This document shows positions 6,285 through 30,480 of a stretch of DNA of 40,031 nt, piece by piece; position 1 is the first letter of the stretch, and each line of letters begins with the position of its first letter. The DNA lies in sequence record SRR2962707_2248. One strand, 5' to 3'. Position numbers and translations under genes: made by a program. The notes under the pieces were generated by a model that was not told the DNA's origin, did no database searches, and was given only the letters and a program-made list of their open reading frames with translations.

Positions 6285-9179
6285 CTATTCCTTTCTACCT
6301 GGTCTCTCCCTTGGTTTTTTTATAGTTAAAGGAGTTTCTACGTTCGTGTTGCCGACTGTGACACGAACCGTGTATTCTCCAATCGTTAAATGATAGTCGC
6401 CATTTTCGGCGGCTTCATAATTTTCCTTTTGTTCCTCATCAAGTAGTTCTTTGTATGACTCATCGGTTTCCAATGGTATTTCAGCATTATTCAAACCTTG
6501 ATCAGCCTTAATATCTGTGGAAGAAACTACCTGATCCTTAAAGATAATTTCAATTTTCCCATTAGCAGCAGAGTTTGCATAAAAAGTCACATCAATCGTC
6601 GGCTCGATAACGTCACCCCACGTCCAGGTCTTACTTCCCCACCTGGAACTGTGTGTTACTTCCTTAATTGGGAATGCATGTATTTCTTTGGCTAAAATTT
6701 CATCATTCATTTGCTGAACAATAGACACATCACCAATGTAAATACCTCTTCCATGAGTGCCCAGAACCAATTCATTTGCTCTTGGATGAACAATCAAGTC
6801 ATGAACCGGTGTGTTTGGTAAGCCTTCCGCAAAGGCCTGATAGCTTTGTCCTCCATCAATTGAAACGTATACACCATGATCAGTTCCGACATAAATGATA
6901 TTTTCGTTCACAGGGTCTTCTTTTACCACGTTAACGGGTTCCATCGGAAGGTTTGCAGAGATGTCTTTCCAGTTATTTCCATAATCCTCACTCACGTAAA
7001 CAAGTGGTCGGAAATTGTCCCATCGGTAACCATTCAATGAAGCATACACTCTGCCTTCTTTATGTGCAGATGCGACAACTGTACTGACCCAAAAGTTCTC
7101 GGGTAAATTATCCGTGATCTTCGTCCAGCTTTCACCTGCATTTTCTGAGCGATGGATCAGGCCATCATCACTACCCACGTAAATCAATCCAAATCGCGTT
7201 GGGGATTCCGAGATGGTGGTAAGGGTTCCGTAGCTCACGTCTCCTTTTTTTCCACCATTGGTAAGGTCTCCACTAAGTGTTTCAAAGTTTTCGCCCATGT
7301 CCATGGACCGGTGGAAACGATTGCTGCCGAAGTAAACAATGTCCTGATTGTGACTGGAAAGAGCAATAGGTGCTTCCCAGTTCCAGCGATACGGGGCATC
7401 CCCCAATTGATGACGAGGTGTGATGTATTTTCTTTCTCCGGTTTCTGTATTGATTCTGAAGTAATTACCAAACTGATAGCCAGTATAAACGGTCTTATTA
7501 TCTCGGGTATCAACAGCCACCTGCATGCCATCTCCACCCATCAGTCTTTCATACGGATAACGGCCTTCCTGATACCAGCTTCTTGAATATTCGTAGGTAC
7601 TTGGCCCTTTCCATACGCCATTGTCCTGGAGTCCACCATAGACATTGTATGGCTCTGCCATATCTACTGCGATCGAATAAAACTGCCCAACAGAAGGGGA
7701 GTTGCAGTTGATCCACGTTGCACCAGTGTCATAGCTCACATAAACGCCTCCGTCATTACCCAGAATCAAATGTCTTGGGTCTTTAGGATTGATCCAGAGC
7801 GCATGGTGATCCACATGGACATTATCTTCATTGATGTTTTTAAATGTTTTTCCACCGTCCTCAGACCGAACGATTGGAACACCCATGGTATACACTACAT
7901 CCGGGTTTTGGGCGTCTACCCGCACCTGTCCAAAGTAATAACCATATGAGAAGATCATGCTTTCGATGAAACCTTCGTGAGTCTTTTTCCAGGTCTTCCC
8001 TGCATCATCCGACCGATACATTTCTCCGCCTTTTACAGGTGTGTCAAATAGAAGCGAGTTGGCGTCTTCCGTATAAATCACCAAATCAATGGGTTTTACT
8101 TTTCCTGCTTCTACATCCTTTTTGATGTCAACCGCATTGTATTCTCTGGGGAAGCCATTGTCATCCAAGAATTCGTTTATCTCCTTGTTTTCAAGCGCCA
8201 TGAATTGTTGATTATTCATGCTTCGTAGCGCATCTTTAGTCAAACCTTCTTCATCATCGTCTTCCTTGGGTCTTCTATCCTGATTGTCAAGGATGGCATA
8301 AACGATGTTTGGGTTTGATGGAGCGAAAGCGAGACCTACCCGACCGGTACCGTCTGTATCAGGAAAACCGGAATCATCTGAAATTTCATTCCATGTATTT
8401 CCTCCATCTTCGGAACGGTAAATGGCTGTACCGGGTCCAGCCTCAGTGAAGTTCCATGCTTTTCGGTCCTTCTCCCATGCTCCGGCAATCAATAAATCAG
8501 GGTTGTCCGGATGCATGATCAATTCCACGATCCCTGTTCGATTGTTAACAAATAAGGTTTTGTTCCATGTCTTTCCACCATCGGTGGATTTATAAATCCC
8601 ACGTTCCGGATTTTCAGAATAGAGATGACCCAAGGCGGCTACCCAAACGGTATTAGGATCACTGGGGTGAATAAGGATTCGTCCAATGTGATGTGTTTCA
8701 GCCAGGCCTAAATGTTCCCAGCTTTTACCATTGTCTGATGACTTAAATATGCCATAACCTGAGTAGGAGGAGCGGCTGGAATTGTTTTCCCCTGACCCCA
8801 CATAAATGATGTCATTCTCCCAGTCTACTTCAATGTCACCAATGGTCATCACGATTTGATTATCGAAGATGGGCTCGAAGGAGGTCCCGTTGTTCTTCGT
8901 CTCCCAAAGTGAGCCTGAAGCATAGGCGGCATAGAAATGTGAAGGATCAGCAGGATCCACAGCCAGGTCAACTACCCGTCCACTCATCACCGTAGGTCCC
9001 ACATTTCGGAATGGAACATTTTTGACTAGCGAGCTTTGTTCTAATTCTAATCGTTGCTGGTATCCCTCCCACCGTTGTTTTGCCGGTGTGGCAGGAGGCA
9101 TGTCATTGGACTTTTTCTTTCGCTGAGCCGGTAAAATTATGACCAAGCTCAGAAAGAGAAGTAGGAAAATGGTTCTCAT
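6285..9179 (-). CDS. Secreted VPS10/BNR-repeat (Asp-box) beta-propeller protein, glycosyl hydrolase-like
   Basis: Signal peptide, FRNVGPTVMSGRVVD, many SxDGGxTW Asp-boxes, GGLQDNG, GGDG, GTHGRG. Confidence 0.85.
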   Translation of the reverse strand: MRTIFLLLFLSLVIILPAQRKKKSNDMPPATPAKQRWEGYQQRLELEQSSLVKNVPFRNVGPTVMSGRVVDLAVDPADPSHFYAAYASGSLWETKNNGTSFEPIFDNQIVMTIGDIEVDWENDIIYVGSGENNSSRSSYSGYGIFKSSDNGKSWEHLGLAETHHIGRILIHPSDPNTVWVAALGHLYSENPERGIYKSTDGGKTWNKTLFVNNRTGIVELIMHPDNPDLLIAGAWEKDRKAWNFTEAGPGTAIYRSEDGGNTWNEISDDSGFPDTDGTGRVGLAFAPSNPNIVYAILDNQDRRPKEDDDEEGLTKDALRSMNNQQFMALENKEINEFLDDNGFPREYNAVDIKKDVEAGKVKPIDLVIYTEDANSLLFDTPVKGGEMYRSDDAGKTWKKTHEGFIESMIFSYGYYFGQVRVDAQNPDVVYTMGVPIVRSEDGGKTFKNINEDNVHVDHHALWINPKDPRHLILGNDGGVYVSYDTGATWINCNSPSVGQFYSIAVDMAEPYNVYGGLQDNGVWKGPSTYEYSRSWYQEGRYPYERLMGGDGMQVAVDTRDNKTVYTGYQFGNYFRINTETGERKYITPRHQLGDAPYRWNWEAPIALSSHNQDIVYFGSNRFHRSMDMGENFETLSGDLTNGGKKGDVSYGTLTTISESPTRFGLIYVGSDDGLIHRSENAGESWTKITDNLPENFWVSTVVASAHKEGRVYASLNGYRWDNFRPLVYVSEDYGNNWKDISANLPMEPVNVVKEDPVNENIIYVGTDHGVYVSIDGGQSYQAFAEGLPNTPVHDLIVHPRANELVLGTHGRGIYIGDVSIVQQMNDEILAKEIHAFPIKEVTHSSRWGSKTWTWGDVIEPTIDVTFYANSAANGKIEIIFKDQVVSSTDIKADQGLNNAEIPLETDESYKELLDEEQKENYEAAENGDYHLTIGEYTVRVTVGNTNVETPLTIKKPRERPGRKE

Positions 9180-11713: not shown

Positions 11714-14599
11714 ATGATGAAAAACTACTTAAAAAGAAAACTGATGGTTTTAGCCTTTATGGTGCCCATTAGTTTTTTGATGGCCCAGGATGTTAGGGTC
11801 AGTGGAACGGTCACGGATGCCTCCAATGGGGAGCCGTTACCGGGTGTTACTGTATTAGTAAAAGGGACAACCAACGGTACTATTACAGGAATAAATGGAG
11901 AATATGAATTGTCGGTTCCATCAGGTTCCACCATCGTCTTTTCTTCTATTGGATATTCGAGTCAAGAAGTTCCTGCTTCTGAAGCTGGAGATCTTGCTAT
12001 GAGAACAGATGTAACGAATCTCGATGAAGTAGTTGTTACAGGACTTGCCACCTCGGTTAAACGATCGAATTTGGCAAATGCTGTGAGCACAGTGTCTTCT
12101 GAACAGCTTACGGGAATGACCAACCAGGGAACTGTGGATGGTGCACTCTATGGAAAAATGACTGGAGTGAACTTAACATCTATTTCAGGAGCTCCGGGTG
12201 GAGGTGTTGCGATGCGTTTAAGGGGGATTTCTTCCATCAAAGGAAATAACCAGCCACTGATTATCATTGATGGAATCTATATGAGCAATGCGGAAATACC
12301 ATCAGGTTCAAGGTTTGCCTCAGGAGCTAACAGGGGCAATGAAGAGCAATCAGCAAACAGGTTAGCGGATCTTGATCCGAACGATATTCAAAATATAGAA
12401 GTATTGAAGGGAGCATCAGCTGCAGCTATTTACGGTACAAGAGCGAATGCTGGTGTTATAATCATCACAACCAAACGAGGAAGCCAGGGTAAAACTCAAT
12501 TTAGCTTATCTCAGGATGTAGGATTTAGCAATGCTGTAAGGCTTTTGGGTATGAGAGATTGGGATGCTACCAAAGTGGCTTCTACCTATGGTGACTCTGA
12601 GGTTGCTGCGTTCAATGCTGCAGATCAACTTTATGATTATGAAGAAGAGCTTTTTGGTGAAACCGGATTGATCCTGAATACCAACTTCTCAGCTAGAGGA
12701 GGAAGCGATAAAACCACTTTTTATATCGGCGGCTCTGTTAGAGACGAGGAGGGAATCATGAAAAATACTGGTTTTAAACGGTATAATATTAGAGCCAATA
12801 TCGATCATAAAATTAGTGATCGGGTAAAAATAACTTCTGCTTCATCTTTCATTAGATCAGAAACATCCAGAGGTTTTACCGGAAATGAAAACGAGGGCGG
12901 TTTGGCTGTAATCTATAACCTGGCTTACACCAGACCATGGTACAACTTATATCCTGATCAATTCGGAAATTATCCTGCTAACCCGTCATCATCAGGTAAT
13001 ATGCTTTTGGTAAGAGATCAAGCCAAAAATGAAGACCAGGTCAATCGAACCCTACAGTCGTTAAATTTTGAAGCAGACCTCATTAAAAAGGATAATCAGG
13101 TGTTAAAGTTTAAGTGGAATGGTGGATTGGATTTCTTTATAAACGAAACGTATGTATACGTACCTGAAACGCATCAAGCTCAGGTGGGCAATCAAAATGG
13201 GTATATTGGAGTAGGTAAGAATACCTTCACCAATCTGAATTATACGGCTTTCTTAAATCATGATATTTATCTAGGTGATTTGGCGTTAAGCACAAGTGCT
13301 GGTATATCATATTTGAATTTTAAAAGAGAGTTTTTGTATTCTGAGGCAACTCAGTTAATACCAGGTCAAACCAATGCAACTCAAAGTGGGTCTAAAGACA
13401 TCATTCAAAACTTAGAGAATGAAGAAGAATTTGGTTTTATATTCCAGGAACAGGCAAACTATAATGATCAACTGATTGGTACTGTGGGTATTCGAATGGA
13501 CAAATCCAGTTTGAATGGTGACCCAAACAAGTATTATAGCTTCCTTAAAGCTTCCTTAGCGGCTAATATCCACAATTTTGATTTCTGGAGTGTTGACCAA
13601 ATCAATCAGTTAAAAGTAAGGGTAGCTTATGGAGAAACTGGATCAAGTGCAACGTATGGTGCTTTGTTTACAACATTTGATCCTACCAATATTGGAGGAC
13701 AAGGCGGTAGCATCATAGATACGCAGCGTGGTACCCCTAATCTTGAACCAGAGACTTCTCAAGAGTTAGAGTTTGGTTTTGATTTAGGACTATTTGATGG
13801 AATTGTTGGATTGGAATTTACAGCCTACAACAGAAAGGTGAAAAATCTATTGTTTGATAGAAGTCTACCTTCATCCATTGGTTTTAGTACCCAGGTGTTA
13901 AATGATGCCGATTTGGAGAATAAGGGTATTGAGATTGCTTTGAATGCACAGCCAGTGAGTAATGACAATGTGACTTGGAATACTACGGTAAACTGGTGGA
14001 AAAATGAAGCTACTTATACACGGTTAGGTGTTCCACCTTTTGCTGCACCAGGAAATGGATTCGGGCTAAGTCTGGGTACTTTTTACATTGAGGAAGGTGG
14101 ATCTGTAACAGGAATCTATCAAAACGTAGATGGAACTCCTACAGAGGTAGGAAATACTCAACCTGATTTTCAGATGTCTTTTTACAACACGGTTAATTTC
14201 CTGAACAACTTTGATTTCTCTTTCTTGTTGCACTGGAAAAAAGGCGGTGAGAACCTGAACCTCTCCAATTTACTTTTTGATGATGGAGGTACAAATCCGG
14301 CAATTGATGATCGTGGCTCACAATATGCTGCTACCAATATTCAGCCTGCTGGCTATTGGAGACTAAGAGAAGTGGCTTTGTACTATACTCTGCCCAACTC
14401 GGCATTGAGCATTTTCAATGGGTCTATTCAGAGTATTAAAATTGGAACTTCTGGAAGAAATTTATGGACTAAGACTGATTATCCTGGTTATGATCCAGAG
14501 GTTTCTACTAACGGTACCAATGCTCTGGGAAGTGGGCTTGATGTAGGGCCATATCCTAATAACAGGCAGATATTTTTCCATCTCAATGTAAACTTTTAA
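11714..14599 (+). CDS. SusC/RagA family TonB-dependent outer membrane receptor
   Basis: N-terminal GEPLPGVTVLVKGT domain, plug motif DIQNIEVLKGASAAAIYGTRANAGVIIITTKRG, NLEPETS, and a C-terminal Phe. Confidence 0.95.
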   Translation: MMKNYLKRKLMVLAFMVPISFLMAQDVRVSGTVTDASNGEPLPGVTVLVKGTTNGTITGINGEYELSVPSGSTIVFSSIGYSSQEVPASEAGDLAMRTDVTNLDEVVVTGLATSVKRSNLANAVSTVSSEQLTGMTNQGTVDGALYGKMTGVNLTSISGAPGGGVAMRLRGISSIKGNNQPLIIIDGIYMSNAEIPSGSRFASGANRGNEEQSANRLADLDPNDIQNIEVLKGASAAAIYGTRANAGVIIITTKRGSQGKTQFSLSQDVGFSNAVRLLGMRDWDATKVASTYGDSEVAAFNAADQLYDYEEELFGETGLILNTNFSARGGSDKTTFYIGGSVRDEEGIMKNTGFKRYNIRANIDHKISDRVKITSASSFIRSETSRGFTGNENEGGLAVIYNLAYTRPWYNLYPDQFGNYPANPSSSGNMLLVRDQAKNEDQVNRTLQSLNFEADLIKKDNQVLKFKWNGGLDFFINETYVYVPETHQAQVGNQNGYIGVGKNTFTNLNYTAFLNHDIYLGDLALSTSAGISYLNFKREFLYSEATQLIPGQTNATQSGSKDIIQNLENEEEFGFIFQEQANYNDQLIGTVGIRMDKSSLNGDPNKYYSFLKASLAANIHNFDFWSVDQINQLKVRVAYGETGSSATYGALFTTFDPTNIGGQGGSIIDTQRGTPNLEPETSQELEFGFDLGLFDGIVGLEFTAYNRKVKNLLFDRSLPSSIGFSTQVLNDADLENKGIEIALNAQPVSNDNVTWNTTVNWWKNEATYTRLGVPPFAAPGNGFGLSLGTFYIEEGGSVTGIYQNVDGTPTEVGNTQPDFQMSFYNTVNFLNNFDFSFLLHWKKGGENLNLSNLLFDDGGTNPAIDDRGSQYAATNIQPAGYWRLREVALYYTLPNSALSIFNGSIQSIKIGTSGRNLWTKTDYPGYDPEVSTNGTNALGSGLDVGPYPNNRQIFFHLNVNF

Positions 14600-14610
14600 A
14601 CACAACTGAA

Positions 14611-15948
14611 ATGAAAAAGATATTATTATTAATAATAGTTACCTCAATTACGTTTGGATGTGAAATTGAAGATCAAGTAAATCCAAATGCACCGGCATTG
14701 GAGGATATTGTTGCCAATGCCTCAGAAACAGAATTGAACAACTTAGTAACAGGTATTTTGGCTAGAATGCGGAATAGTTATCCAATATATACTACCGCAA
14801 CTGGAACAATCACCAGAGAATTGTATTTATTCGATGCAGATCCTAGAAACACAACTGATTTAGTAGGAACAAAAGAATCCGGTCTAAGTAATAGTGTATT
14901 TTATACAACTGCTAACTGGACCAATAGATACAGAACAATCAAAAACTGTAACATATTATTGGAATCTTTGTCAGGAGCTGAACCGAGTGTAACGGCAGCT
15001 GAGAAGCAAGGCTACAGTGCCTTTGCCAAAACAATTATGGCACACCAATTTTTAATTCTTTGGGGTGCGTACTTTGATAGTGGCATTAGAATAGACGTAG
15101 CTGATCCTGATGATTTTGGACCATTGGTTACTGATCCGGATCAAGTACTACAATTTGTACGTGATTTGTTCGATGAAGCAAATGATGAGTTAACAGGAGC
15201 AGAGTTCGCATTTGGACTTTCTACCGGATTTGCAGGCTTTGATACTCCAGCTACATTTTCTGGGTTTAACAGAGCACTGGCTGCCCGGGCAGCCCTGTAT
15301 GCCGGAGATGGTGCAGCAGCATTGACTCACCTTGGAGATTCATTCTTTGATATTAATGGAGACTTGAACTTAGGTCCTAAAATGATCTTCAGCACTTCGG
15401 GTGGAGATTTACTTAATGATCTATTTAAAACTCCAGGTCAAAATGGTAATCAGATTTTTGCATCTGATACGTGGGTAGATGAAGCCCAGGCCGGAGACCC
15501 GAGAGTGGCAGCTAAGGTGACACAACGAGATGCACCATTCACTAAATCTGGAATTACAGTGAATTATGAGACCAATCTATATCCCACATCAACTAGCCCC
15601 ATTGATATTATTCGAAATGAGGAGCTAATGTTGATTTATGCTGAGGCTAACATCACTGATGGAACGAATGCTGAAGCATTGGCCGGCATTAATGCTGTAA
15701 GAGCAGGCTGGGGTTGGGCCAATCCATTGGCAGGAACTGTAACAATTGATGATGTCCTTTATGAAAGAAGATATTCCCTGTGGGGAGAGGCACACAGAAT
15801 GGTTGACTTGAGACGTACTGGTAATCTCAATGATACTTACATCACATTGGATAATATTACTACCACTGATGAAAATGATAATGTGGTGCCTGCTAGACAG
15901 GAAATATTTACTAAGTTCCCGCTTCCATTGGATGAAGTTGGTAGCTAA
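14611..15948 (+). CDS. SusD/RagB family outer membrane lipoprotein
   Basis: Lipobox ITFGC, IRNEELMLIYAEA, ERRYSLWGEAHRMVDLRR. Lies directly after susC. Confidence 0.92.
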   Translation: MKKILLLIIVTSITFGCEIEDQVNPNAPALEDIVANASETELNNLVTGILARMRNSYPIYTTATGTITRELYLFDADPRNTTDLVGTKESGLSNSVFYTTANWTNRYRTIKNCNILLESLSGAEPSVTAAEKQGYSAFAKTIMAHQFLILWGAYFDSGIRIDVADPDDFGPLVTDPDQVLQFVRDLFDEANDELTGAEFAFGLSTGFAGFDTPATFSGFNRALAARAALYAGDGAAALTHLGDSFFDINGDLNLGPKMIFSTSGGDLLNDLFKTPGQNGNQIFASDTWVDEAQAGDPRVAAKVTQRDAPFTKSGITVNYETNLYPTSTSPIDIIRNEELMLIYAEANITDGTNAEALAGINAVRAGWGWANPLAGTVTIDDVLYERRYSLWGEAHRMVDLRRTGNLNDTYITLDNITTTDENDNVVPARQEIFTKFPLPLDEVGS

Positions 15949-17847: not shown

Positions 17848-19659
17848 ATGAAAAAACCACTTCTCCTTCTCTCATTTGTGATCGCTTTGGGTGCTTACAG
17901 TCAGGATAGCCTACGATCAGACAGTATTCAGCGGGCAGTCAATAGCCTGAATCAGCAGCTAAATACGTACGAGCGATTGCTCGATGAGAACATCCAACGG
18001 CGCAGGCAGGATTCACTGGCTCGTGTAGATTTAATGAAGCGAATCCAGTTACTTCAGGAGAGTGATAAGCTGAGTCAGGCGACCCTTCGTGAACAAATAA
18101 AAGAGATTGAGCAAAGAGACTCTGCACGAAATGCGGAGCAAAGAGAACGTATCCTCCGGCTTAGAGAAAGCACAAAGGGCTATACTGTAAAGCCTCTTGG
18201 TGATTCACTTTTTACCATTTTCACCAAATTGGGTCCGGTGATGGCAGAAGAAAGAGCTTCCAATGTCTCGGAAAAATTAAAGCTGCTTGTCAGAGATGAT
18301 TTTTTCTATCCGGATTCACTATACCGGGAGGAACATGGAGGAACAATTGATGTGATGTATCAAAACCTGATCATTACGAGTGTGTCCGATTGGGACGTAC
18401 TATGGGTAGAAGGGATCAGTAAAGATTCACTGGCCGGTACGTACCAGCGTAGTATTCTGGAATTTGTAAATAAATCCAGAAACCGCAGTACCATTCAAAA
18501 TATTGCAGCAAGGATTGGCTTGGTTTTTTTAGTGATTGGAGGTGTGGTCTTGGTCCTGTATTTCATTCGTCGCATTACGAATGGCATCCAGGGGTGGATG
18601 GTTCTTAACAAGAATAAATATTTCAATGGTTTGCGGCTAAGGAGCTATGAATTCCTTCCTCCACCATTGCATCTGGACATTAGTGTTCGGATGGTGTCTT
18701 TTTTGAAATGGACACTATACGCATTAGTCCTTTACCTCTCACTTCCGTTAGTATTCGGGCTTTTCCCATTTACACGCAGCTGGGCAAATACATTACTGGA
18801 TTGGATATTAAGTCCTGCGCGGGATATTTGGTTTGGCTTTTGGAATTACCTGCCCAATGTATTCACCATCATAGTCATTTATCTCATTACGCGATATCTG
18901 GTAAAATTCCTGAAGTTCATTGCTACGGAAGTCGAAATATCAGCACTCACCATCCCCGGTTTTTATCCGGATTGGGCCCTGCCAACATACCGTCTGGTGA
19001 AGTTCCTGATCTATGCTTTTATGCTGGTGATGATATGGCCTTATTTGCCGGGTTCCGATTCTGATATTTTCAAAGGAGTTTCTATTTTCATTGGGTTGTT
19101 GATATCCTTTGGATCTACCTCAGCTATTGCCAATGCAGTTGCCGGATTGGTCATAACCTACATGCGTCCTTTTAAAGTAGGTGACCGGGTAAAAATAGGA
19201 GAGGTGACGGGACAGATCATTGAGAAGACGTTGTTGGTGACCCGGGTCAGGACCACCAAGAATGAAGACATCACAGTGCCAAACTCCGCTATACTTACGG
19301 GTCACACTGTCAATTACACGAGTAGCAGCAAAGAACTTGGACTCATACTGAACACCTCTGTAACGATCGGTTACGATGTGCCCTGGAGAAAAGTGCATGA
19401 ATTGTTGATTGAGGCAGCAGTAGCCACCGAAGGGGTGAATATCAGCAAAGAGCCGTTTGTGCTGCAAACCAGCCTTGACGATTGGTATGTGTCATATCAG
19501 TTGAATGCGTATACAGATGCGCCGGAGTTGATGCCCAAAACTTATTCATTGTTGCATGCTAACATTCAGGATAAGTTCAATGAGGCAGGTATTGAGATTA
19601 TGTCTCCGCACTACAGAGCGGTAAGGGATGGGAATATGACTACCATACCTAAGAGATAA
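17848..19659 (+). CDS. MscS family mechanosensitive channel with a large periplasmic N-terminus
   Basis: Signal peptide, coiled coil, TM helices, RPFKVGDRVKIG, ITVPNS, TIGYDVPW, FNEAGIEIMSPHY. Confidence 0.92.
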   Translation: MKKPLLLLSFVIALGAYSQDSLRSDSIQRAVNSLNQQLNTYERLLDENIQRRRQDSLARVDLMKRIQLLQESDKLSQATLREQIKEIEQRDSARNAEQRERILRLRESTKGYTVKPLGDSLFTIFTKLGPVMAEERASNVSEKLKLLVRDDFFYPDSLYREEHGGTIDVMYQNLIITSVSDWDVLWVEGISKDSLAGTYQRSILEFVNKSRNRSTIQNIAARIGLVFLVIGGVVLVLYFIRRITNGIQGWMVLNKNKYFNGLRLRSYEFLPPPLHLDISVRMVSFLKWTLYALVLYLSLPLVFGLFPFTRSWANTLLDWILSPARDIWFGFWNYLPNVFTIIVIYLITRYLVKFLKFIATEVEISALTIPGFYPDWALPTYRLVKFLIYAFMLVMIWPYLPGSDSDIFKGVSIFIGLLISFGSTSAIANAVAGLVITYMRPFKVGDRVKIGEVTGQIIEKTLLVTRVRTTKNEDITVPNSAILTGHTVNYTSSSKELGLILNTSVTIGYDVPWRKVHELLIEAAVATEGVNISKEPFVLQTSLDDWYVSYQLNAYTDAPELMPKTYSLLHANIQDKFNEAGIEIMSPHYRAVRDGNMTTIPKR

Positions 19660-19743
19660 TTTTTTACTATCACTTATTTCCGTTACTTTTAATTGTAGGA
19701 TTAGACATCAACCAGATCATGATTTTAACCATTAACGATTGTC

Positions 19744-21396
19744 ATGAAACGGTTATCAGGGTTATTAGCGCTTGCTCCATTATTGGTTGGAGCAAGGGGT
19801 GATGAAGATTTAATAATTTCAGAGCAGGCTGTTTCAGTTTGCTCTATTCAGCAGGTTCAAAACCCGTCAACAGGAGAGTATTTTACTAACCTGTTGAGCA
19901 CGGAAAATTGGCCCGCCAGATGGACTTGCGGTACATGGTCTGCCGCAGATGGATGGATTTACATCATATCCGATCTCATCATCTTTGCCGCCTATTTGTC
20001 TATTCCCATCATGCTGTTCATATATCTCTGGAAGCGTAATTTGGGATTCTTTAAGCCTCTGACTTTTGCATTCGGTGTTTTCATACTTTCCTGTGGTGTT
20101 ACACATCTCGTTGATGCGATTATTTTTTGGGAACCGATCTATCGTTTTAGCGGATTCGTCAGGGCAATCACAGCGGTTGTTTCTGTTGCTACCGTGGGAC
20201 TGATGATAAAATCTATTCCAACAGCACTAACATTTAAAAGTCCGGTCACATTACAAAGAGAAGTTGATTTGGCCGTTGCTGAATCAAAGGAATTGAATAG
20301 TATACTCCAGGAGTCTTTCAGTATTGCCAAGATCGGTACATGGAAATTGGATCTTCAAACCAGTCAAGTAATATGGAGTGATTCATTGTACGATATTTAC
20401 GAAATCCCACATGGGACACCTATTGATCTGCAAAAAAGTCTGGATATGTACCCGGGACAGGAAAAGCTCATAGAGGATACCATAGCTAAGGCAATCGCGG
20501 ACAGAAGTAATTATGATCTGGAATTGCTGGTAACTAAACCCAATGGTGAACAGCTTTGGACAAAAGCCATTGGTATTTTAGAGGTCCATGGAGAAGAGGT
20601 CACAAGCATTCGGGGCTATGTGATGGACATTGATACAAGTAAACAATTAGAGGTTGAACGGAAAAAATCCCGTGAAAAATTGGAGAAAGAGGTGAACACC
20701 AGGACGAGGGAGCTGAAGGCGGTGAATCAGGAACTGGAATCATTTAGTTATTACATTTCTCATGACTTAAGAGCTCCACTTAGAGCGATTAATGGTTTTT
20801 CTGAAGCACTTCTCGAAGACTACAAGCCTAAACTTGACGATGAGGCTAGCAGATATTTAGACAGGATATCCTATAACAGTCGAAAAATGGGTGAGCTGAT
20901 CGATGATATTCTTGCATTTAGCCGGATGAACCGTAAGGAAACCAACTTTAAAAGTGTAAATCTCAGTAAAGTAGTTACTGATCTGATCAATAATCTGTTT
21001 GTCGAATCTAAATCAATTATTCAAGTCAGAAATCTTCCTGAAATCTATGGGGATAAAGAAATGATTAATCAGGTTTTCGCAAACCTTTTATCAAATGCAA
21101 TTAAATATTCCTCAAAAGAAGAATCACCTTTAATCGAAATAGTTGGAGAAGAATTCGAGGACTCATACTTAGTTAAAATCGTCGATAATGGTGTTGGGTT
21201 TAACATGCAATATGCCGACAAGCTATTTATGGTATTTCAAAGGTTACATTCAGATGAGGAATTTGAAGGCACAGGAGTAGGTCTGGCTCTTTGCCAAAGA
21301 ATAATGAGTATGCATAATGGCGAGATATGGGCGCATAGTGAGGAAGGTAAGGGAGCAACTTTTTTTCTAAAATTTAAAAAGCAAATGAATGACTGA
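19744..21396 (+). CDS. Sensor histidine kinase: ETR1-like ethylene-binding TM domain + PAS + HisKA + HATPase
   Basis: ISDLIIFAAYLSIP...FGVFILSCGVTHL...RAITAVVS aligns to the ETR1 TM1-3 motifs. H-box ISHDLRAPLRAI, N-box NLLSNAIKY, G boxes DNGVG and GTGVGL. Confidence 0.9.
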   Translation: MKRLSGLLALAPLLVGARGDEDLIISEQAVSVCSIQQVQNPSTGEYFTNLLSTENWPARWTCGTWSAADGWIYIISDLIIFAAYLSIPIMLFIYLWKRNLGFFKPLTFAFGVFILSCGVTHLVDAIIFWEPIYRFSGFVRAITAVVSVATVGLMIKSIPTALTFKSPVTLQREVDLAVAESKELNSILQESFSIAKIGTWKLDLQTSQVIWSDSLYDIYEIPHGTPIDLQKSLDMYPGQEKLIEDTIAKAIADRSNYDLELLVTKPNGEQLWTKAIGILEVHGEEVTSIRGYVMDIDTSKQLEVERKKSREKLEKEVNTRTRELKAVNQELESFSYYISHDLRAPLRAINGFSEALLEDYKPKLDDEASRYLDRISYNSRKMGELIDDILAFSRMNRKETNFKSVNLSKVVTDLINNLFVESKSIIQVRNLPEIYGDKEMINQVFANLLSNAIKYSSKEESPLIEIVGEEFEDSYLVKIVDNGVGFNMQYADKLFMVFQRLHSDEEFEGTGVGLALCQRIMSMHNGEIWAHSEEGKGATFFLKFKKQMND

Positions 21397-21832
21397 ACTC
21401 AGGGAAATTCAAATAATCCTCGTAGAGGACAGCACGGATGATGCCGAGCTTACCATGCGATCATTAAAGAAAAGTAATGTGGTAAATGATATTGTATGGC
21501 TGAAAGATGGGGAAGAAGCATTGAATTACTTATTAAGGAAAGGACATTACTCAGAGCGTGATTTGTTAAAGAAACCAAAGCTAATTCTGCTTGATTTGAA
21601 GCTACCCAAGGTAAGCGGAATTGAAGTGCTGGAAGTGATCAAAAAAAATGAAGATTTAAAGGCAATTCCGGTAGTAGTCATGACGTCATCTCGCGAGAAC
21701 CAAGATTTAGAAAAATGTTATCAACTGGGAGTGAATAGTTATGTAGTGAAACCCATAAACTTCAATAAGTTCATGAATCTGGCAAATGAAGTCAGCATGT
21801 ATTGGGTCATGATCAATAAAACTCCGGATTAG
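21389..21832 (+). CDS. Single-domain response regulator (Rcp1/CheY-like)
   Basis: Motifs LVEDS, LLDLKLPKVSG (phospho-Asp), MTSS, NSYVVKP. Overlaps the kinase stop. Confidence 0.93.
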   Translation: MTELREIQIILVEDSTDDAELTMRSLKKSNVVNDIVWLKDGEEALNYLLRKGHYSERDLLKKPKLILLDLKLPKVSGIEVLEVIKKNEDLKAIPVVVMTSSRENQDLEKCYQLGVNSYVVKPINFNKFMNLANEVSMYWVMINKTPD

Positions 21833-21856
21833 GATTTTGAGAAGGTTGAGCGAGAT

Positions 21857-23626
21857 ATGGAAAACAAAAAGAAACCGATAGCAATACTATACCTGGAAGA
21901 CAATGAGGATGATGTGGAGTTGTTAAGACTAACATTGAATAAATCAAACTTGCATTACAATCTCTCATGTGTGTCCACAAAAGATGAGTTTCTGAAATTG
22001 AATCTTCAGGATTATGATGTGATTATTACAGACTATAACCTTACAGACTATGATGGCCTCTCTGCCATTAAATATATCAGATCGCTTGATGTGGCCATTC
22101 CAATAATACTTCTTTCCGGCACTGTTGGTGAGGAGCTGGCCGCAGATTTATTACGCGCAGGAGCTAATGATTTTGTTTTAAAATCCAACATGAAAAAGAT
22201 TGTGATTGCAGTTGAGCGAGGCATTAGAGAGACCTCAATGGTGCGTGAGAAAAAACGATTTCAAAAAGAGCTTCTGGAAAAAAACCTTATTCTGGATACC
22301 ATTTTTGACAGTTTTGACGATTTAATCTTCTTAAAGAATGCTGATGGGAGATATTTAAAAGTGAATAAGGCCTTTTGTGAATTTATCAAAATGCATGAAG
22401 CGGAGTTGGTTGGGCATACTGATGCAGAATTATTTCCTGGTAAAATTGCCGAACAATCCAAAGAACAGGATGAGTATGTGAAACTATCCGGAAAGCCTGT
22501 AACCTATGATATGGAAATGACAATCGACAATCAAAGAAAGGTGCTTGAAGCTACAAAAACACCCCTGATTATTGATGATGAGGTGACCGGAATTGTTGGT
22601 AAATATCACGATATAACAACAAGGAAAATACTGCTTGAGGAGACAATGAAAGCTAAGTCTATTTTAAGTCAGGCTGAAAAATTAACTCGTTCGGGGAGTT
22701 TTGAGTATGATTCAAATCTGGATCTGATTAGCTGTAGCTCAAATTTCAAGCATATTCTGAAATTACAGATTGAAGGAGACACCATTTCCTTCAGGAAACT
22801 TACTCACCTTGTAAAAGAGGAGGATCGGAGCATTTTTGTAGAAGGAATAACGACAGCAATTGAAAACTATGAAGAGTATCATAATGAACACCGTTTCCGT
22901 GTTTCCTTAAACGGGAAGGAAGGCATTTACTATTTTAAAGTGGTATTAAGGCCAGACTATAAGGACAAAAACAGTACGCGTTTTTACGGCACCATCGTAG
23001 ACGTAACTACTGAGCATGAAAACCAAATCTACCAGTTGGACAGGCAGGAGCGCGATCGAAAGGAAATTGCGCGAGAGTTGCATGACAACCTGGGTCAGAA
23101 GATGAATGCTATCTCCATGTTTATTAGTAAGATATCTGACGGTTTTCCTGACAACAAGGACTTGATAAAGGTTAAGAACCTGGCACATGAGTCCATCGAT
23201 GATCTGGGTTATCTAATCAATAATATTTCCGTAAAGCAAATTGAAGAGCATAGCTTAGGGTATGCAATTGACAAGCTAATAGGGTACATGCCTGAAGAAA
23301 TGATTGTGTATCGCGAATACAATATCGATGAGAAGATGCTTTCTACTTTTGTAAAAGCACAGGTCTACCGTATAGCACAGGAGGCTTTAAATAATGTCCT
23401 GAAGTATAGTAAGGCCACTCATGTTCAAATGAACCTTCACCAGGAAGGAGGAGTTTTAAGTTTGTATATTGAAGATAATGGGAAGGGGTTCGCGAAGGAA
23501 AAAGTGCTGACGGGTAATGGGCTCCAGAATATTATTCATCGGGTTCGCCGTAGCAACGGACTCGTGGATATCGATTCTAAGATCGGAGAGGGTACACGCA
23601 TCAAAGTAAAAGTTCCGGTTAGCTAA
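21857..23626 (+). CDS. Hybrid kinase: REC + PAS + PAS + HisKA_3 + HATPase (copy 1)
   Basis: LYLED, IITDYNL, FVLKS; PAS IFLKNADGRYLKVN; EIARELHDNLGQ; QEALNNVLKYS; EDNGKGF; GNGLQNI. Confidence 0.88.
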   Translation: MENKKKPIAILYLEDNEDDVELLRLTLNKSNLHYNLSCVSTKDEFLKLNLQDYDVIITDYNLTDYDGLSAIKYIRSLDVAIPIILLSGTVGEELAADLLRAGANDFVLKSNMKKIVIAVERGIRETSMVREKKRFQKELLEKNLILDTIFDSFDDLIFLKNADGRYLKVNKAFCEFIKMHEAELVGHTDAELFPGKIAEQSKEQDEYVKLSGKPVTYDMEMTIDNQRKVLEATKTPLIIDDEVTGIVGKYHDITTRKILLEETMKAKSILSQAEKLTRSGSFEYDSNLDLISCSSNFKHILKLQIEGDTISFRKLTHLVKEEDRSIFVEGITTAIENYEEYHNEHRFRVSLNGKEGIYYFKVVLRPDYKDKNSTRFYGTIVDVTTEHENQIYQLDRQERDRKEIARELHDNLGQKMNAISMFISKISDGFPDNKDLIKVKNLAHESIDDLGYLINNISVKQIEEHSLGYAIDKLIGYMPEEMIVYREYNIDEKMLSTFVKAQVYRIAQEALNNVLKYSKATHVQMNLHQEGGVLSLYIEDNGKGFAKEKVLTGNGLQNIIHRVRRSNGLVDIDSKIGEGTRIKVKVPVS

Positions 23627-23639
23627 AACAGTAATAAAA

Positions 23640-24278
23640 ATGAGGACACTTCTATTAGTGGATGATCACCAAATTATCAGAGATGGTATTCGGTTTTACT
23701 TCGAGGGCGATGACGAGTTTGTCATAAAAGATGAAGCTGAAAATGGCTTGGAGGCACTGGATTTGTTGAGGGATAATGAATATGACATTATACTTACGGA
23801 TATCAATATGCCAAAAATGGATGGCATAGAATTTATGAAAACACTCAGGGAAAATCACCCTGATCAGAAAGTACTGGTACTGTCCATGTATAATGAGGCC
23901 GGTTATATCAATAAAATGATTGCCCTGGGTGCAAATGGTTATGTATTGAAGAAATCGACCAAAGACGAATTGGTTGAGGCCATCAAAAAAATCCTTGACG
24001 GAGGAGATCATTATTCGGAAGAGGTATATAAGACAATCATAGGTAATATAGCAGGGCGAAAACCAAAGGAGCGATTGACCCTTGAAACAGAACTATCTGA
24101 AAGAGAAAAAGAGGTGTTGGTCTTGATCACCAATGAATACACCAATAAGGAAATTGCCGATAAGTTATTCATCAGTATTCGTACAGTGGAAACCCACAAA
24201 AGAAACCTTCTGGAAAAGACAGGTTGCAAGAATATAGCAGGCCTTGTGATGTACGCGGTTGAGCGAAACCTGGTTTAG
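23640..24278 (+). CDS. NarL/FixJ family DNA-binding response regulator (REC + LuxR HTH)
   Basis: Motifs VDDHQIIRDG, DINMPKMDG, LSEREKEVL, EIADKLFISIRTVETHKRNL. Confidence 0.95.
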   Translation: MRTLLLVDDHQIIRDGIRFYFEGDDEFVIKDEAENGLEALDLLRDNEYDIILTDINMPKMDGIEFMKTLRENHPDQKVLVLSMYNEAGYINKMIALGANGYVLKKSTKDELVEAIKKILDGGDHYSEEVYKTIIGNIAGRKPKERLTLETELSEREKEVLVLITNEYTNKEIADKLFISIRTVETHKRNLLEKTGCKNIAGLVMYAVERNLV

Positions 24279-24351
24279 TCTGCCGTTTTTTCTAATCTTT
24301 GAAATTTTAGTTAATTTATTAGAATCTTCCAATTAGGGAGATTTATTGCAT

Positions 24352-27300
24352 ATGGATCACCAGCTATTTATAAAAGATCTAAACAAACCTGTTGTCATCC
24401 TCGATGTAGATCAAGGGCATTTCATCGATTGCAACAAGCTGGCACTTGAATTTTTTCAACTATCTAAAAAGGAAATACTAAGCAAAAACCCCTTCGATCT
24501 AAGCCCACCGAATGTTTATGGTCATGAAGCAGCGGCCTACAGCAGACAGGTCATCCAGGAGGCACTTGCAGGAGCAAACCCGGTTTTTGACTGGATTCAT
24601 ATAGACAAGGAGGGTAATGAAATTCCCTGTGAAGTACGGCTATTCCGATTTCCTCCATTCAATAGGCAGCTGGTCAGAGGAACTATCATTGACAAACGAA
24701 AGGAAACAAATCTCGATTTACGGGAAACTGAAGAGCGTCTTCGGTTATCTATGGAGGCGTCTCAAATCGGAATATTTGATTTTTACCCTCAAGCAAACAA
24801 AGTGACTTGGAACGATCGGCTCTTCGATATTTTTGAGTTGGATCCAACAAATAAAATAGATCTAAATAAGCACTTTTTTAGCATCATTCACCCAGACGAT
24901 AAAGAGCAGGTTACTCAGGAATTTGAGGAAGCACTGAATCCCAAAGGTCCGGATACCAGAAGCAATGAATATAGAGTAATCGTCAGCGGTAAGACCAAAC
25001 ATGTTTTAGCTTATAGTCGGCTCATTAGGAATGATGATGGAGAAGTCATTCGAATGCTTGGTACCACTCAAGACATCACAGCCTTAAGGGAGTCTGAAAA
25101 GAGATTGAGGGAAAATGAAGAACTGCTAGACTCCATCATTCAGGATCAGAAGGAAATGATTGTCCGGTGGAAGCCGGGTGGCTTCCGAACATTTGTGAAT
25201 AAGGCATACTGTGAGACATTTGACCTTGATCCTAAAGAAGCGATTGGTAAAAGTTTCTTTCCTCAGCTGGAAAAATCTTTTCTCAAGGAATTTAAAGAGG
25301 ACATAAAAAAGCTCACCAGTAAAAATCCGGTGCGGACCTATACAATAAATAACCACATGCCAAATGGTAAGAAAGTATGGCAGGAATGGTCTGACCGGGC
25401 TTATTTTGACAGAAAAGGAAACCCTGTAGAATATCAAAGCGTCGGGAGAGACATCACTGCTCAGAGGGAAAGTGAACTTGAACAACAATTAATATCTGAG
25501 CGTCTTAAAGCAGTTTCTGGTAATCTACCTGGTGTTGTTTTACGTTACAGGCTCAACCCTGATTTTTCCGATGAACTAACGTTTATTAGTAATGGTATTC
25601 GTGATCTTCTAGGTGTGGAAGTAGATGATGCTATTTCTGATATAAACACGGTATGGTCAAGGTTTCTCCATGAAGATGTAGAGAAAGTCAAGCAATCTAT
25701 TCAAGAGTCATATATGCGTATGAGTAGGTGGTATGCCGAATGGAGAATTTATCTGGCAAATGGAGGAGTGGGATGGGTTCAGGGAACAGGAGATCCCAAA
25801 AAGCTTGAAGATGGCAGTGTGATATGGGACTCGGTCATCCTTGATATTACTGAGCAGATGCAAATCAAGAAGGAGTTCGAAAAGAATGAAAATCTTTTCC
25901 GATCCATCGTTCAGGATCAGGACGAAATGATCGTACGTTGGAAGCCGGGAGGTGTCCGTACTTTTGTGAATAAAGCCTACCTCGATTTCTACAACCTTAA
26001 AGAAGATCAGGTAATTGGTACCAGCTTTTTTGATTTGATTTCTCCGGAAGATCAGGATAGAGTAAAAAAGGAAATCGAAGCACTCACGCCCGAAAATCCG
26101 GCACGTGATAAGGTGCACAGTGTAGTTCTTCCTGATGGTACTCAAGGATGGCAAAAGTGGAAGGATCGCGCCTTTTTTGATGAGTCAGGAAATCCGGTCG
26201 AATATCAGAGTGTTGGTACAGACATTACACTGATAATAGAAGCCGAAAAAGCACTGGAAGAAAGTGAAGCTCGCTACCGTAACGTCTTCAATCAGCAATT
26301 TCAGTTCACTGCTTTGCTGGATATTGAAGGAAAGGTTGTGTTGATCAACGACCTGCCACTAAAGATTCAAGGTCTATCGAGAGAAGATTATACTGGAAAA
26401 TTATTTTGGGAATCACCGGGATGGAAGGGAAATGAAGAGTGGGAGAATAAGGTAAAAAGCCAGGTTCTTTTCACAAAGAAAACGGGAGAGCCTCTGATCG
26501 TTGAGGATCCTTATTATGGGGCTGATAAAGAAGTGAGGTGGGCAAAGGCCGCTTACAGTACAATACAGAATAGTGATGGAAAAATCGAGAATATTTTGGT
26601 TCAGGCGATTGACATTACGATTGAAAAAGATGCCAAAAAAGAGATTGAAGAGCGGGAGCGTAAACTCTCACTGATCTATGGTAATACGAATGATTTTATC
26701 CTTTTAATCCGGTGTGATAAAAATGGATATTTTATTGAAGAGATCAATGATAGCTGCATGCAATTACTTGATCTCTTCAATCTGGATATCCCCAAAGAGA
26801 AGCTAATTGGAGTATCCATGCATGATGTTTATGAAGATTTACTTCAATTCTCCCAAGAGAAAGTGACAGAAAGAGTCCAAGCTTTTGATTTTATAAAGAA
26901 TCGAAGAGAACCGGTCTCATATCAACAAGAGATGAAAACCAACAAAGGCTTTCTGATTACAAATGTCGATGTTGTACCGGTTATTCAGGAGGGTCAAGTG
27001 ACTCATCTTCTCATGGTGGCAAAGGATATTACGGAAACCTTTCTGGGTCAAAAGAAGCTGGAAGAGGCCTATAAAGAGGTAAATAAATTGAAGGCGCAAT
27101 TAGAGCAGGAAAACATTTACTTAAAAGAAGAGATCAAGCAAGCCAATGATTTTGAGAACATGGTCTTTAGGAGTAAAGAGTTTAGAAACGTTCTCAACAA
27201 AGTAGAGCAGGTGGCCAAGACAAATGCAACCGTTCTGATTACAGGTGAAACAGGGACAGGAAAGGAATTGATAGCTCGTGCTATACACAATGTCAGCAAG

Positions 27301-28142: not shown

Positions 28143-28231
28143 ATTATTTTCGATTAAGTATTTTACTTATTGATATTTAATACCCTTCATTGTCAGATAG
28201 TTACAGGTCCTTTTTTCTACCTTCGAATAAC

Positions 28232-28247
28232 TGGCACGTCCATTGGT
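28232..28247 (+). promoter_or_regulatory. Sigma54 -24/-12-like promoter
   Basis: TGGCAC-GTCCA-TTGGT versus consensus TGGCAC-N5-TTGCW (one mismatch at the -12 C). It lies about 90-130 bp downstream of the palindromes. Confidence 0.6.
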
Positions 28248-28259
28248 AATGGATTTTGC

Positions 28260-28685
28260 GTGACAGTTTCAAAAAATCAAATCGAGCTAAAGACAGGCAC
28301 ACATTGGATTGAAGATTCCTGTGTGCATTCTGCATTCTTTATTCCCAATGGTTGTCCGATGATAGACAGCCGAATGATCAGGGAGCATATTGAGGCATTG
28401 GATCTTTTTTTGGATGATGGTATAAGGATTCCTTTTTTAATAGACCTTACATCATCTGAAAGTGTGTTCAGCTTTAATGCGTTAAAAACCTGGGGACAGA
28501 GTAATGACCTTAATGCCTATCGATCGGCGGAAGTCTATGTAGTAGACACGCTTGCTGATTTGATCTTTTTAAAACAGCACATCCGACTAAATAAGCTGGA
28601 TTATCCTGCGAGGGTATTTCAATCTCTCTATCAGGCAAAAGATTGGCTCAGGAAACTCGGAAACAATCACCACAGTCCTATTTAA
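28260..28685 (+). CDS. STAS/SpoIIAA-like (STAS/SEC14) small protein
   Basis: PFLIDL, AEVYVV and C-terminal YPARVFQSLYQAKDWL typical of SpoIIAA-like proteins. Start uncertain; in-frame GTG 28260 chosen because upstream codons overlap the promoter. Confidence 0.55.
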   Translation: MTVSKNQIELKTGTHWIEDSCVHSAFFIPNGCPMIDSRMIREHIEALDLFLDDGIRIPFLIDLTSSESVFSFNALKTWGQSNDLNAYRSAEVYVVDTLADLIFLKQHIRLNKLDYPARVFQSLYQAKDWLRKLGNNHHSPI

Positions 28686-28710: not shown

Positions 28711-30480
28711 ATGGAAATGAATATGGAAGGCGAAAGGAAGTGTGAGATCAGAGTATTAATGCTGGAAGACAATGCGGATGATGTGCTTTTGGCGCAGGGG
28801 ATGTTATCAAAAAATGGCATTAATTACACAATGCGTATAATTGATACGGAAAATGAACTGAAATCAGAAGACTTGACCCATTATGATTTGGTTCTTTGTG
28901 ACTATAATCTCACCGATTATGATGGTCTTCGTTCAGTGCAATACATCCGTGAGCATACAGATATCCCAATCATTATCGTGTCCGGTTCTATAAATGAGGA
29001 GATGGGATGTGAGCTGCTGGAAGCAGGTGCTCAGGAATTTGTGAAAAAATCGTGTTTGAGAATCTTGCCTCACATAGTTAAAAAGTCCCTTGCTCACTAC
29101 GAACTGAAAAAGCAGTCTGCCGAATGTAACAGGATGTATGAAAAGACATCTCAGATGTTCGAAACGCTGTTTGATGGTTTGGAAAACCCGGTGTTCATTA
29201 AAGATACCGAGGGTATATACCAACGTGTCAATGCTGCTTTTTGCAGGTTATATGAAAGAAGTGAGGCTGAGCTAATTGGAAGATCCGATGAGGAACTCGA
29301 CTGGATGCACTTAAGTGAAAAATCCATGAGGGATGACAGGTTTATTTTGGATAAAGGGGTGTCGTCAAATTACGAGTTGAATTACCTTAATGAAAAAGGT
29401 GAGCGGGTATGGCTGGCTGTGACTAAAAATCCAATTTTTACCGATGGGAAAATTTCAGGAATACTAGGACAGGCACGAGATATAACAAAAAGCAAAAATG
29501 CCATCGCCATAATGGAAAAGTCCCAGTTTGTACTATATCAAACCGAGGAGTTGACCCGGGCAGGCAGTTTTGAATATGATGTGGATTTGGACCTGGTCAC
29601 GTGTTCTAAAAACCTCATGAAAATGCTGGGGCTTCATTCCAATCAGATATCCCTGAGCAGGTTGGTTCGACTGATCAAGAAGGAAGATCGTACCATTTTT
29701 CTCGATGGTATTAATAATAGTATTGAAACGAAGCGGGAGTATAGGATGGAACATCGATACATGCTTAATGAAAAAAATCAGGGGCATTTTGAAATCCTTT
29801 TTAGACCGGACTACAGAGATGAAACGGGCAACACATTTTATGGAATCATTGTAGATATTACTGATGAATCCAAGGAAAGTATCTCCCGACTGGAGTATCA
29901 TGAAGAATCTAAAAACGAGATAGCAAGGGAATTGCATGATAATCTAGGCCAAAAACTCAATGCCGCTTCTATGTACCTGGGCAAAGTGATCTCATGTAAT
30001 GATTGTACATCAGTAATCTCAAAAGCAACAGATGTTTTACACGAGGGGATCAATGATCTTGGACGGTTGATTACCGGTATTTCCCTTAAAGAAATAGATG
30101 ATATTTCATTGCAGTATGCACTGGAAAAATTAACCAACTGCCTGCCTGATGGAATGCGTTTAAACTTTGAATGCAATATTGATGAGTCAGCAATTTCAAA
30201 ATTTGTGAAGCGACAGGTATTTCGTATTGTACAGGAGACCGTAAACAATGCAGTGAAATACAGTCAGGCAAAAAACCTCAATATCATACTAAACCACGAA
30301 GGTAGTATCCTGAATATGATTGTAGAGGACGATGGCAATGGATTCGATATACTGACCGCCACAAAAGGAAACGGCCTGATCAATATTACCCACAGGGTTA
30401 AAAAGTCCAATGGCTTGATCAATATTGATTCGAGAAGAGGAGAGGGTACCAAGGTGAGGGTAAAAATGCCGGTTGCTTAA
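28711..30480 (+). CDS. Hybrid kinase: REC + PAS + PAS + HisKA_3 + HATPase (copy 2, paralog of 21857-23626)
   Basis: Shares DYNLTDYDGL, GSFEYD, RPDY, EIARELHDNLGQK, GNGL and IDS..GEGT with copy 1. Confidence 0.88.
   Translation: MEMNMEGERKCEIRVLMLEDNADDVLLAQGMLSKNGINYTMRIIDTENELKSEDLTHYDLVLCDYNLTDYDGLRSVQYIREHTDIPIIIVSGSINEEMGCELLEAGAQEFVKKSCLRILPHIVKKSLAHYELKKQSAECNRMYEKTSQMFETLFDGLENPVFIKDTEGIYQRVNAAFCRLYERSEAELIGRSDEELDWMHLSEKSMRDDRFILDKGVSSNYELNYLNEKGERVWLAVTKNPIFTDGKISGILGQARDITKSKNAIAIMEKSQFVLYQTEELTRAGSFEYDVDLDLVTCSKNLMKMLGLHSNQISLSRLVRLIKKEDRTIFLDGINNSIETKREYRMEHRYMLNEKNQGHFEILFRPDYRDETGNTFYGIIVDITDESKESISRLEYHEESKNEIARELHDNLGQKLNAASMYLGKVISCNDCTSVISKATDVLHEGINDLGRLITGISLKEIDDISLQYALEKLTNCLPDGMRLNFECNIDESAISKFVKRQVFRIVQETVNNAVKYSQAKNLNIILNHEGSILNMIVEDDGNGFDILTATKGNGLINITHRVKKSNGLINIDSRRGEGTKVRVKMPVA

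Follow-up and report, generated by a model that had tools for sequence, protein, structure and literature searches.

A putative ETR1-type ethylene receptor at the head of a conserved kinase cassette in marine Ekhidna (Bacteroidota)

In Arabidopsis, tomato, Synechocystis and Azospirillum, proteins that carry a set of seven residues in a three-helix membrane domain are described as ethylene binders (PMC10266040, PMC11819568). In the plant receptor ETR1, D25, C65 and H69 are required for ethylene binding (PMC10266040). The bacteria named as having proven receptors are Synechocystis, whose SynEtr1 (Slr1212) signals by a histidine kinase phosphorelay to a response regulator, and Azospirillum; putative receptors are placed 'in other bacterial phyla', with emphasis on cyanobacteria and proteobacteria. 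AzoEtr1, from Azospirillum brasilense Sp7, has all seven of the ETR1 ethylene-binding residues, its residues 1-130 bind 14C-ethylene saturably, and it is followed by a 135-amino-acid (aa) receiver-only gene that overlaps its stop (PLoS Genet 2025, PMC11819568). Here we describe a related sensor histidine kinase gene in a stretch of DNA of 40,031 nucleotides (nt) from sequence record SRR2962707_2248, hereafter the window. In our judgement the kinase is probably, though by no means assuredly, a homodimeric inner-membrane sensor and putative copper-dependent ethylene receptor homologous to ETR1 and AzoEtr1. This reading draws on homology, conserved residues, a predicted fold and dimer, synteny and purifying selection; that copper is loaded, that ethylene is the ligand, which way regulation runs and which proteins take part in phosphotransfer are what we infer from them.

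The kinase gene is composed of the following parts:

19744-21396, plus strand: sensor histidine kinase gene, 550 aa, an intact open reading frame (ORF) with Pfam domains
19744-19794, plus strand: signal-peptide-like N-terminus, residues 1-17, read from the sequence and its hydropathy
19795-19908, plus strand: predicted periplasmic extension with Cys33, residues 18-55, from comparison with relatives
19909-19938, plus strand: motif WPARWTCGTW, residues 56-65, directly before helix 1, from column conservation
19951-20232, plus strand: ETR1_N (PF25487), residues 70-163, a domain of the ethylene/copper-binding type, Pfam 98.3 bits
20296-20673, plus strand: PAS-like region, about residues 185-310, from a weak Pfam PAS_9 match, BLASTP and homologs
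20737-20931, plus strand: HisKA, residues 332-396, dimerisation and phospho-acceptor, Pfam 59.8 bits (cut-off 26.9)
21049-21381, plus strand: HATPase_c catalytic domain, residues 436-546, Pfam 83.2 bits (cut-off 26.4)

An initial annotation of this DNA had placed an ETR1-type domain at 19909-20244. These coordinates correspond exactly to residues 56-167, the sequence strings quoted there are found in the ORF, and the ETR1_N match (E 3.2e-28, against a curated cut-off of 27 bits), which spans positions 3-96 of the 97 in the profile, is far beyond chance. A small correction applies to the upstream boundary: the conserved region begins at about residue 45, ahead of the Pfam match, and includes WPARWTCGTW. 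Transmembrane segments can yield spurious similarity, and the resemblance to ETR1_N could in principle reflect no more than the composition of hydrophobic helices, or the gene could be decaying. Both ideas are refuted by the E-value, the intact frame of 550 codons, same-length orthologs at 93% and 83% identity, and a ratio of nonsynonymous to synonymous substitution rates (dN/dS) of 0.077, and we regard them as vanishingly improbable.

The remainder of the protein is a classical HisKA-type sensor histidine kinase, in which HisKA, containing the H-box histidine within SHDLRAPL, and HATPase_c both exceed their cut-offs. Between the membrane domain and this core, PAS_9 matches only weakly (residues 239-296, E 0.031, 15 bits, under the cut-off of 27); close homologs have PF08447 or PF13426 in the same region, and BLASTP aligned it onto the PAS region of AzoEtr1. 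For the kinase, all NCBIfam equivalogs stayed below their cut-offs, the best being LvrA with 223 bits against 1200.

The gene belongs to a marine species of Ekhidna, a genus of the Reichenbachiellaceae (Bacteroidota) according to the genome labels. The two same-length orthologs are those of an Ekhidna sp. genome (L001), to which the kinase is 93% identical over its full length, and of a second Ekhidna (L002) at 83%. DNA close to the window was found in five marine metagenome runs from three studies, with shares of 0.22-0.59, one of these runs being possibly the sample of origin, and no RNA run was among the listed holders of such DNA. Because other Ekhidna genomes have versions of 807-954 aa with three or four PAS domains at the same locus, the window kinase can be called a short form. 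The Ekhidna reference genome has a second ETR1_N locus (G001:C1:2494217-2494489; 100.3 bits, in a 434-aa open frame), so that some Ekhidna genomes carry two ETR1_N sensors.

As the reference receptor for a residue-by-residue check we used AzoEtr1 and not the plant ETR1. Azospirillum replicons were matched by the window domain in a tblastn search of plasmids, and a 525-aa ORF in the Sp7 record (L064) was identified as AzoEtr1 because the published cloning primer matches the start of this ORF exactly. Window residues 62-163 align without a gap to AzoEtr1 residues 20-121, with 36 of 102 positions identical. An alignment or a profile search had been named by the initial annotation among the ways to check its assignment, and the outcome of both, this gap-free alignment to the AzoEtr1 binding domain and the PF25487 score above cut-off, agrees with it.

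All seven ethylene-binding residues are present in the ORF, as had been claimed, and pair with their AzoEtr1 counterparts (window/AzoEtr1) as D77/D35, Y84/Y42, I87/I45, P88/P46, I114/I72, C117/C75 and H121/H79; T120, also within the domain, pairs with T78. The spacing is equally as claimed, with 40 residues from D to C, and the distance from C to H is 4. Y32, I35, P36 and I62, the ETR1 residues that complete the set of seven, are reportedly also required, in work by Wang et al. from 2006. At the position of ETR1 K91 the window has R140, again in keeping with the initial annotation, and R140 stands opposite K98 of AzoEtr1. Outside the set, Cys62 of the window aligns with Cys20 of AzoEtr1, and both C62 and W65 are invariant with AzoEtr1 and a homolog from Acaryochloris.

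The likeness to AzoEtr1 extends beyond the membrane domain. Both proteins have the order ETR1_N, PAS, HisKA, HATPase_c in a chain of similar length (550 aa in the window, 525 aa in AzoEtr1), and in both a short receiver-only gene comes next, its start overlapping the kinase stop. They differ in that overall identity of the kinases is 24%, and in that AzoEtr1 lacks a signal peptide and has an LPHGVCLFW-type segment ahead of helix 1 and a K in the bridge, whereas the window protein has WPARWTCGTW, a predicted exported extension bearing Cys33, and R140; the window cassette, furthermore, goes on with a second kinase and a LuxR-type regulator.

With ETR1, after which the Pfam family is named, the window domain shares the Cys/His pair on helix 2, the Asp on helix 1 and the basic residue on helix 3, and it too is predicted to form a homodimer. 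Unlike ETR1, the window protein has R for K91, a signal-peptide-like N-terminus with an extension, and PAS for GAF; its kinase is of the bacterial HisKA type, its receiver is separate, and it is located in the bacterial inner membrane. The initial annotation had remarked on PAS in place of GAF; this holds for the comparison with ETR1 but is no peculiarity of the window kinase, as in AzoEtr1, too, a PAS follows the binding domain and precedes the kinase. SynEtr1 belongs to the same domain family, and the Acaryochloris homolog aligns with the window gap-free across the domain. The cyanobacterial proteins differ by GAF or phytochrome-like domains, often by a fused receiver, and by an MPHGxC-type N-terminus, and they fall in another clade. 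Every named protein among the best 120 of 2049 matches to the Acaryochloris domain is cyanobacterial, and no source name among these 120 mentions ethylene; the names are generic, for example 'GAF domain-containing protein', so that name-based searches miss the ETR1_N family.

To place these residues in a wider set, a full HMMER scan with residues 45-175 was run among 1.84 billion cluster representatives, which returned 7029 at E<=0.001, 3897 of them at E<=1e-10. The 176 relatives examined below comprise the window protein, 26 hits from a word search and the best 150 of the 7029 representatives, one protein being in both lists. Four of the seven residues, Y84, I114, C117 and H121, are present in each of the 176; I87 is kept in 173, P88 in 174 and D77 in 164, with N in its place in seven. 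All seven occur together in 159.

Position 140 is K in 106 relatives and R in 55, so that the exchange of K91 for R is a common natural state. The residue at this position is coupled to that at position 77. D is paired with K in 105 relatives and with R in 54, which means that a basic residue is found at position 140 in 159 of the 164 proteins with D77; the other recurrent pairs are N-L (seven) and S-L (three), and wherever N or S replaces D77, in ten proteins, position 140 is L, which amounts to a coupled variant of the polar bridge that carries no charge. This covariation mirrors the Asp25-Lys91 coupling of ETR1, which has been reported together with the natural occurrence of Asn in place of Asp25 (Azhar et al. 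2023, PMC10266040); the ETR1 K91R exchange keeps 63% of ethylene binding (PMC10266040).

A further group of conserved residues lies in the periplasmic loop between helices 2 and 3 (residues 129-133, positions 20129-20143), in which W129 is kept in 170 of the relatives and P131 and Y133 in all 176; the three are invariant also in AzoEtr1 and Acaryochloris. Taken with Cys62 and Trp65, they suggest that bacterial forms of the domain have a conserved outer cap.

Selection on the gene can be read from the comparison with the L001 ortholog. Here the membrane domain, taken as residues 56-167, has a dN/dS of 0.027, compared with 0.063 in the kinase core, 0.081 in the PAS region and 0.077 over the gene as a whole, and is thus the most constrained part of the gene. 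This bears on the idea that the three helices serve only as an anchor and dimerisation module and that the cytoplasmic PAS is the real sensor. A PAS-like region does lie between membrane domain and kinase, the domain is predicted to dimerise, and the Ekhidna orthologs with three or four PAS domains at the locus indicate that cytoplasmic inputs matter. A bare anchor, however, sits poorly with a membrane domain that is more constrained than the PAS region, and with polar and metal-binding residues (D, C, H, T, R/K) that are invariant inside the helices; we hold it to be quite improbable.

Three hydrophobic segments in the hydropathy profile coincide with three helices predicted at high confidence by AlphaFold2, which was run on residues 20-180 with a 128-row alignment (mean pLDDT 92.1, pTM 0.80). 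Helices are predicted at residues 67-96, 101-126, 133-161 and 167-179; the model is of low confidence over residues 20-39 or so and of high confidence from around residue 40 onwards.

The membrane domain is moreover predicted to form a homodimer. In a test on residues 40-180, made without an alignment (model number plus 19 gives the protein numbering), the pair passed with a score of 0.84 against 0.00 for the best control. The pass mark is attained for 21 of 30 microbial proteins whose solved structure is a pair of one chain, and for 0 of 23 whose solved structure is a single chain. The runs share no less than 97% of contacts, with a partner pLDDT of 88 or more. R140 of one copy is modelled in contact with D77 and H121 of the other at low expected error, and C117, C62 and residues 62-69 are in the interface. 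The initial annotation had expected a dimer of three-helix domains that brings D77, C117 and H121 together; the cross-contacts of R140 with D77 and H121 and the interface position of C117 go with this, as judged from contacts alone.

Among solved structures, residues 1-200 had no sequence match at E<=10 and the model no Foldseek match at E<=0.001; VIA-align reached a Z of at most 9.5, with generic helical bundles as the match, a value under the stated noise level for helical proteins. To our knowledge there is no experimental structure of an ETR1-type binding domain. Because no similar solved structure exists, the dimer prediction is unlikely to come from a remembered complex.

Residues 1-17 begin with a basic MKR, continue with a hydrophobic core (hydrophobic peak 2.32 at residues 4-15) and close with V-G-A; they look like a Sec-type signal peptide with a putative cleavage site at that end. 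The signal-peptide-like N-terminus seen by the initial annotation is real, and it recurs: 59 of the 176 relatives have a long extension, 110 a short one, and seven are outside the motif pattern. A hydrophobic N-terminal peak is present in 43 of the 59 long forms. One or more additional Cys lie upstream in 57 of the 59 against two of the 110 short ones, and in the long forms such a Cys sits 25-42 residues ahead of the motif Cys. As a speculation, Cys33 may pair with Cys62.

The loop between helices 1 and 2, WKRNLGFFK, is basic, which places this loop in the cytoplasm and the N-terminus outside. The N-terminus of ETR1 lies lumenal. A long extension of the kind seen here probably needs the signal peptide to hold the N-terminus outside.

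The motif before helix 1 is nearly invariant among the 176 relatives (R59, W60 and G63 in 174 each, C62 and W65 in 175). In the form P[AP]RWxCGxW it was found at named loci in Ekhidna, Marinoscillum, Cytophagaceae, Cyclobacteriaceae, Terrimonas, Flavobacteriales and Planctomycetota, while a PHGxC-type segment takes its place in AzoEtr1, a Nitrosomonadales protein and Acaryochloris. A domain tree was built from 71 domains and 129 columns by a quick search, with a midpoint root and without a plant sequence. All Bacteroidota and Planctomycetota entries of this tree are in the clade of the window, which lies outside the clade of validated bacterial receptors of the AzoEtr1/cyanobacterial type.

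Several observations weigh against ethylene reception and have to be set beside the evidence above. In the tree, the P[AP]RWxCGxW clade with the window is split from the AzoEtr1/Nitrosomonadales/cyanobacterial clade at 100% SH-aLRT, and we found no experimentally tested member in it, for which reason ethylene binding by the window protein is something we infer. The ETR1_N score of the window (98 bits) is below those of AzoEtr1 (132) and the Acaryochloris homolog (140). The receiver encoded next to the window kinase is only 23% identical to the partner receiver of AzoEtr1, a generic similarity, so the layout shared by the two loci may be an analogy. No copper-handling gene was found among the 19 window ORFs scanned against Pfam. 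Input could also enter through the PAS region, as a second route or as the main one. Plants with ETR1 K91R are hyposensitive, even though this form binds ethylene (PMC10266040). Finally, ligand specificity is not readable from sequence.

This last point, the separate clade and the clade's own periplasmic elements, namely P[AP]RWxCGxW and the extra Cys of the long forms, which could alter access or chemistry, all speak for another possibility: the domain may bind Cu(I) as ETR1 does and answer to a signal other than ethylene, whether a different small pi-ligand (another alkene or carbon monoxide), copper availability or the redox state of the envelope. We consider this unlikely, but not to the degree of the anchor-only alternative. 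It has against it that the seven residues have been kept together in 159 of 176 relatives along with the D-K/R coupling, and that proteins with these residues are the ones described as ethylene binders in the two plants and two bacteria named at the outset. A putative ethylene receptor thus stays our preferred interpretation.

The initial annotation had stated that no such receptor was known in Bacteroidota. This stands for characterised receptors only; the domain itself is present above cut-off in 21 of 401 sampled genomes of the phylum to which the Ekhidna reference belongs, in 66 of 301 sampled genomes of the order Cytophagales, about a fifth, and in 15 of 42 sampled genomes of the genus, against 0 of 14 control genomes, these being genome samples in which incomplete genomes may hide copies. 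All 26 proteins from the word search were already annotated with PF25487, under generic source names such as 'sensor histidine kinase'. Our search of the open literature, outside which lay Lacey and Binder 2016, Carlew 2019 and Papon and Binder 2019, found no report of a Bacteroidota ethylene-binding domain and nothing relevant on PF25487/ETR1_N. The presence of the domain in Bacteroidota is therefore not a discovery and is at most under-reported.

Downstream of the kinase, the window continues with these genes:

21389-21832, plus strand: receiver-only response regulator, 147 aa, Response_reg 68.9 bits, overlapping the kinase stop by 8 nt
21857-23626, plus strand: second-tier kinase, 589 aa, with receiver, PAS, HisKA_3 and HATPase_c (Pfam)
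23640-24278, plus strand: LuxR-type response regulator, 212 aa, Response_reg 106.5 bits and GerE 65.5 bits
24346-28086: PAS-rich sigma-54 activator, 1246 aa, TTG start (Pfam)
28170-28685: 171-aa ORF with no Pfam match at E<=1e-4
28711-30480: second receiver-PAS-HisKA_3-HATPase_c kinase, 589 aa (Pfam)

Gaps among the first four genes of the cassette, counted from the sensor kinase, are at most 24 nt. The succession of sensor kinase, receiver and second kinase was found in 14 of 15 related loci, including Marinoscillum, Cyclobacteriaceae and Prolixibacteraceae; the one locus without a match (L056) is on a contig that ends near the kinase gene. The LuxR-type regulator is syntenic in nine loci (L001-L005, L007-L009 and L050), with 90-99.5% identity. 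The multi-kinase cassette is, in other words, conserved across several Bacteroidota families. The wiring is likely a two-tier kinase cascade, with a putative order of phosphotransfer, and the 212-aa GerE/LuxR regulator is likely its transcriptional output. A scan for promoters and terminators at 19400-24500, which was not designed for Bacteroidota promoters, gave counts not above those in shuffled sequence.

The two 589-aa kinases (21857-23626 and 28711-30480) are paralogous, matching at about 41-44% identity at each other's position in related loci by tblastn, and both positions are kept in the Ekhidna loci. The 171-aa ORF is at the same position in six loci (L001, L002, L003, L005, L009 and L050). 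Only about 65% of the sigma-54 activator is matched in the closest relatives, L001 and L002, so its PAS array seems variable in length between strains. Three Ekhidna loci have an extra kinase-like gene upstream of the sensor kinase (L003 8734-9831, L005 8622-9761, L009 8635-9759), preceded in L003 and L009 by an MscS gene; its similarity to the window kinase covers about 65% of the latter at 45-47% identity, and the gene is absent from this place in the window. Elsewhere in the window are a 964-aa Sortilin/BNR-repeat protein on the minus strand (6285-9179) and a SusC/SusD-like pair of a TonB-dependent receptor and SusD (11714-15948), genes typical of nutrient uptake in Bacteroidota and without evident link to the kinase.

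From these elements a working scheme for the putative receptor can be proposed. The signal peptide would export the Cys-bearing extension of about 45 residues and so keep the N-terminus outside the cytoplasm. Within the membrane, Cys117 and His121 of helix 2, aided by Asp77 of helix 1, would hold Cu(I), to which ethylene dissolved in the membrane could bind. The polar bridge between Asp77 and Arg140, the counterpart of Asp25-Lys91 in ETR1, would relay the change to helix 3, from where the signal would reach the HisKA/HATPase core by way of the linker and the PAS region. The kinase might then phosphorylate the receiver encoded by the overlapping gene, the receiver of the following receiver-PAS-HisKA_3 kinase, or both, and this second kinase would in turn control the LuxR-type regulator.

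As an annotation, the finding is expected and not a surprise, since it adds a member to a catalogued domain family that is common in its order. Less ordinary are the separate clade, the predicted exported Cys-bearing extension and the position at the head of a conserved multi-kinase cassette, and the finding carries more weight as a lead to ethylene sensing in marine heterotrophs. We put forward, as a tentative and still doubtful proposal, that marine, non-photosynthetic Cytophagales sense dissolved ethylene through the distinct P[AP]RWxCGxW clade, which would feed a two-tier cascade ending at a LuxR-type regulator. Ethylene in seawater is described as arising from the action of light on dissolved organics, and in this proposal the source would be such photochemical breakdown, or algae; the possible link to algal or plant hosts raised by the initial annotation is a conjecture. 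Marinoscillum furvescens DSM 4134 could be a test organism, because it is a culture-collection strain that has the cassette. If the proposal is true, ethylene would be a widespread cue for marine heterotrophs, beyond plants, cyanobacteria and rhizosphere bacteria.

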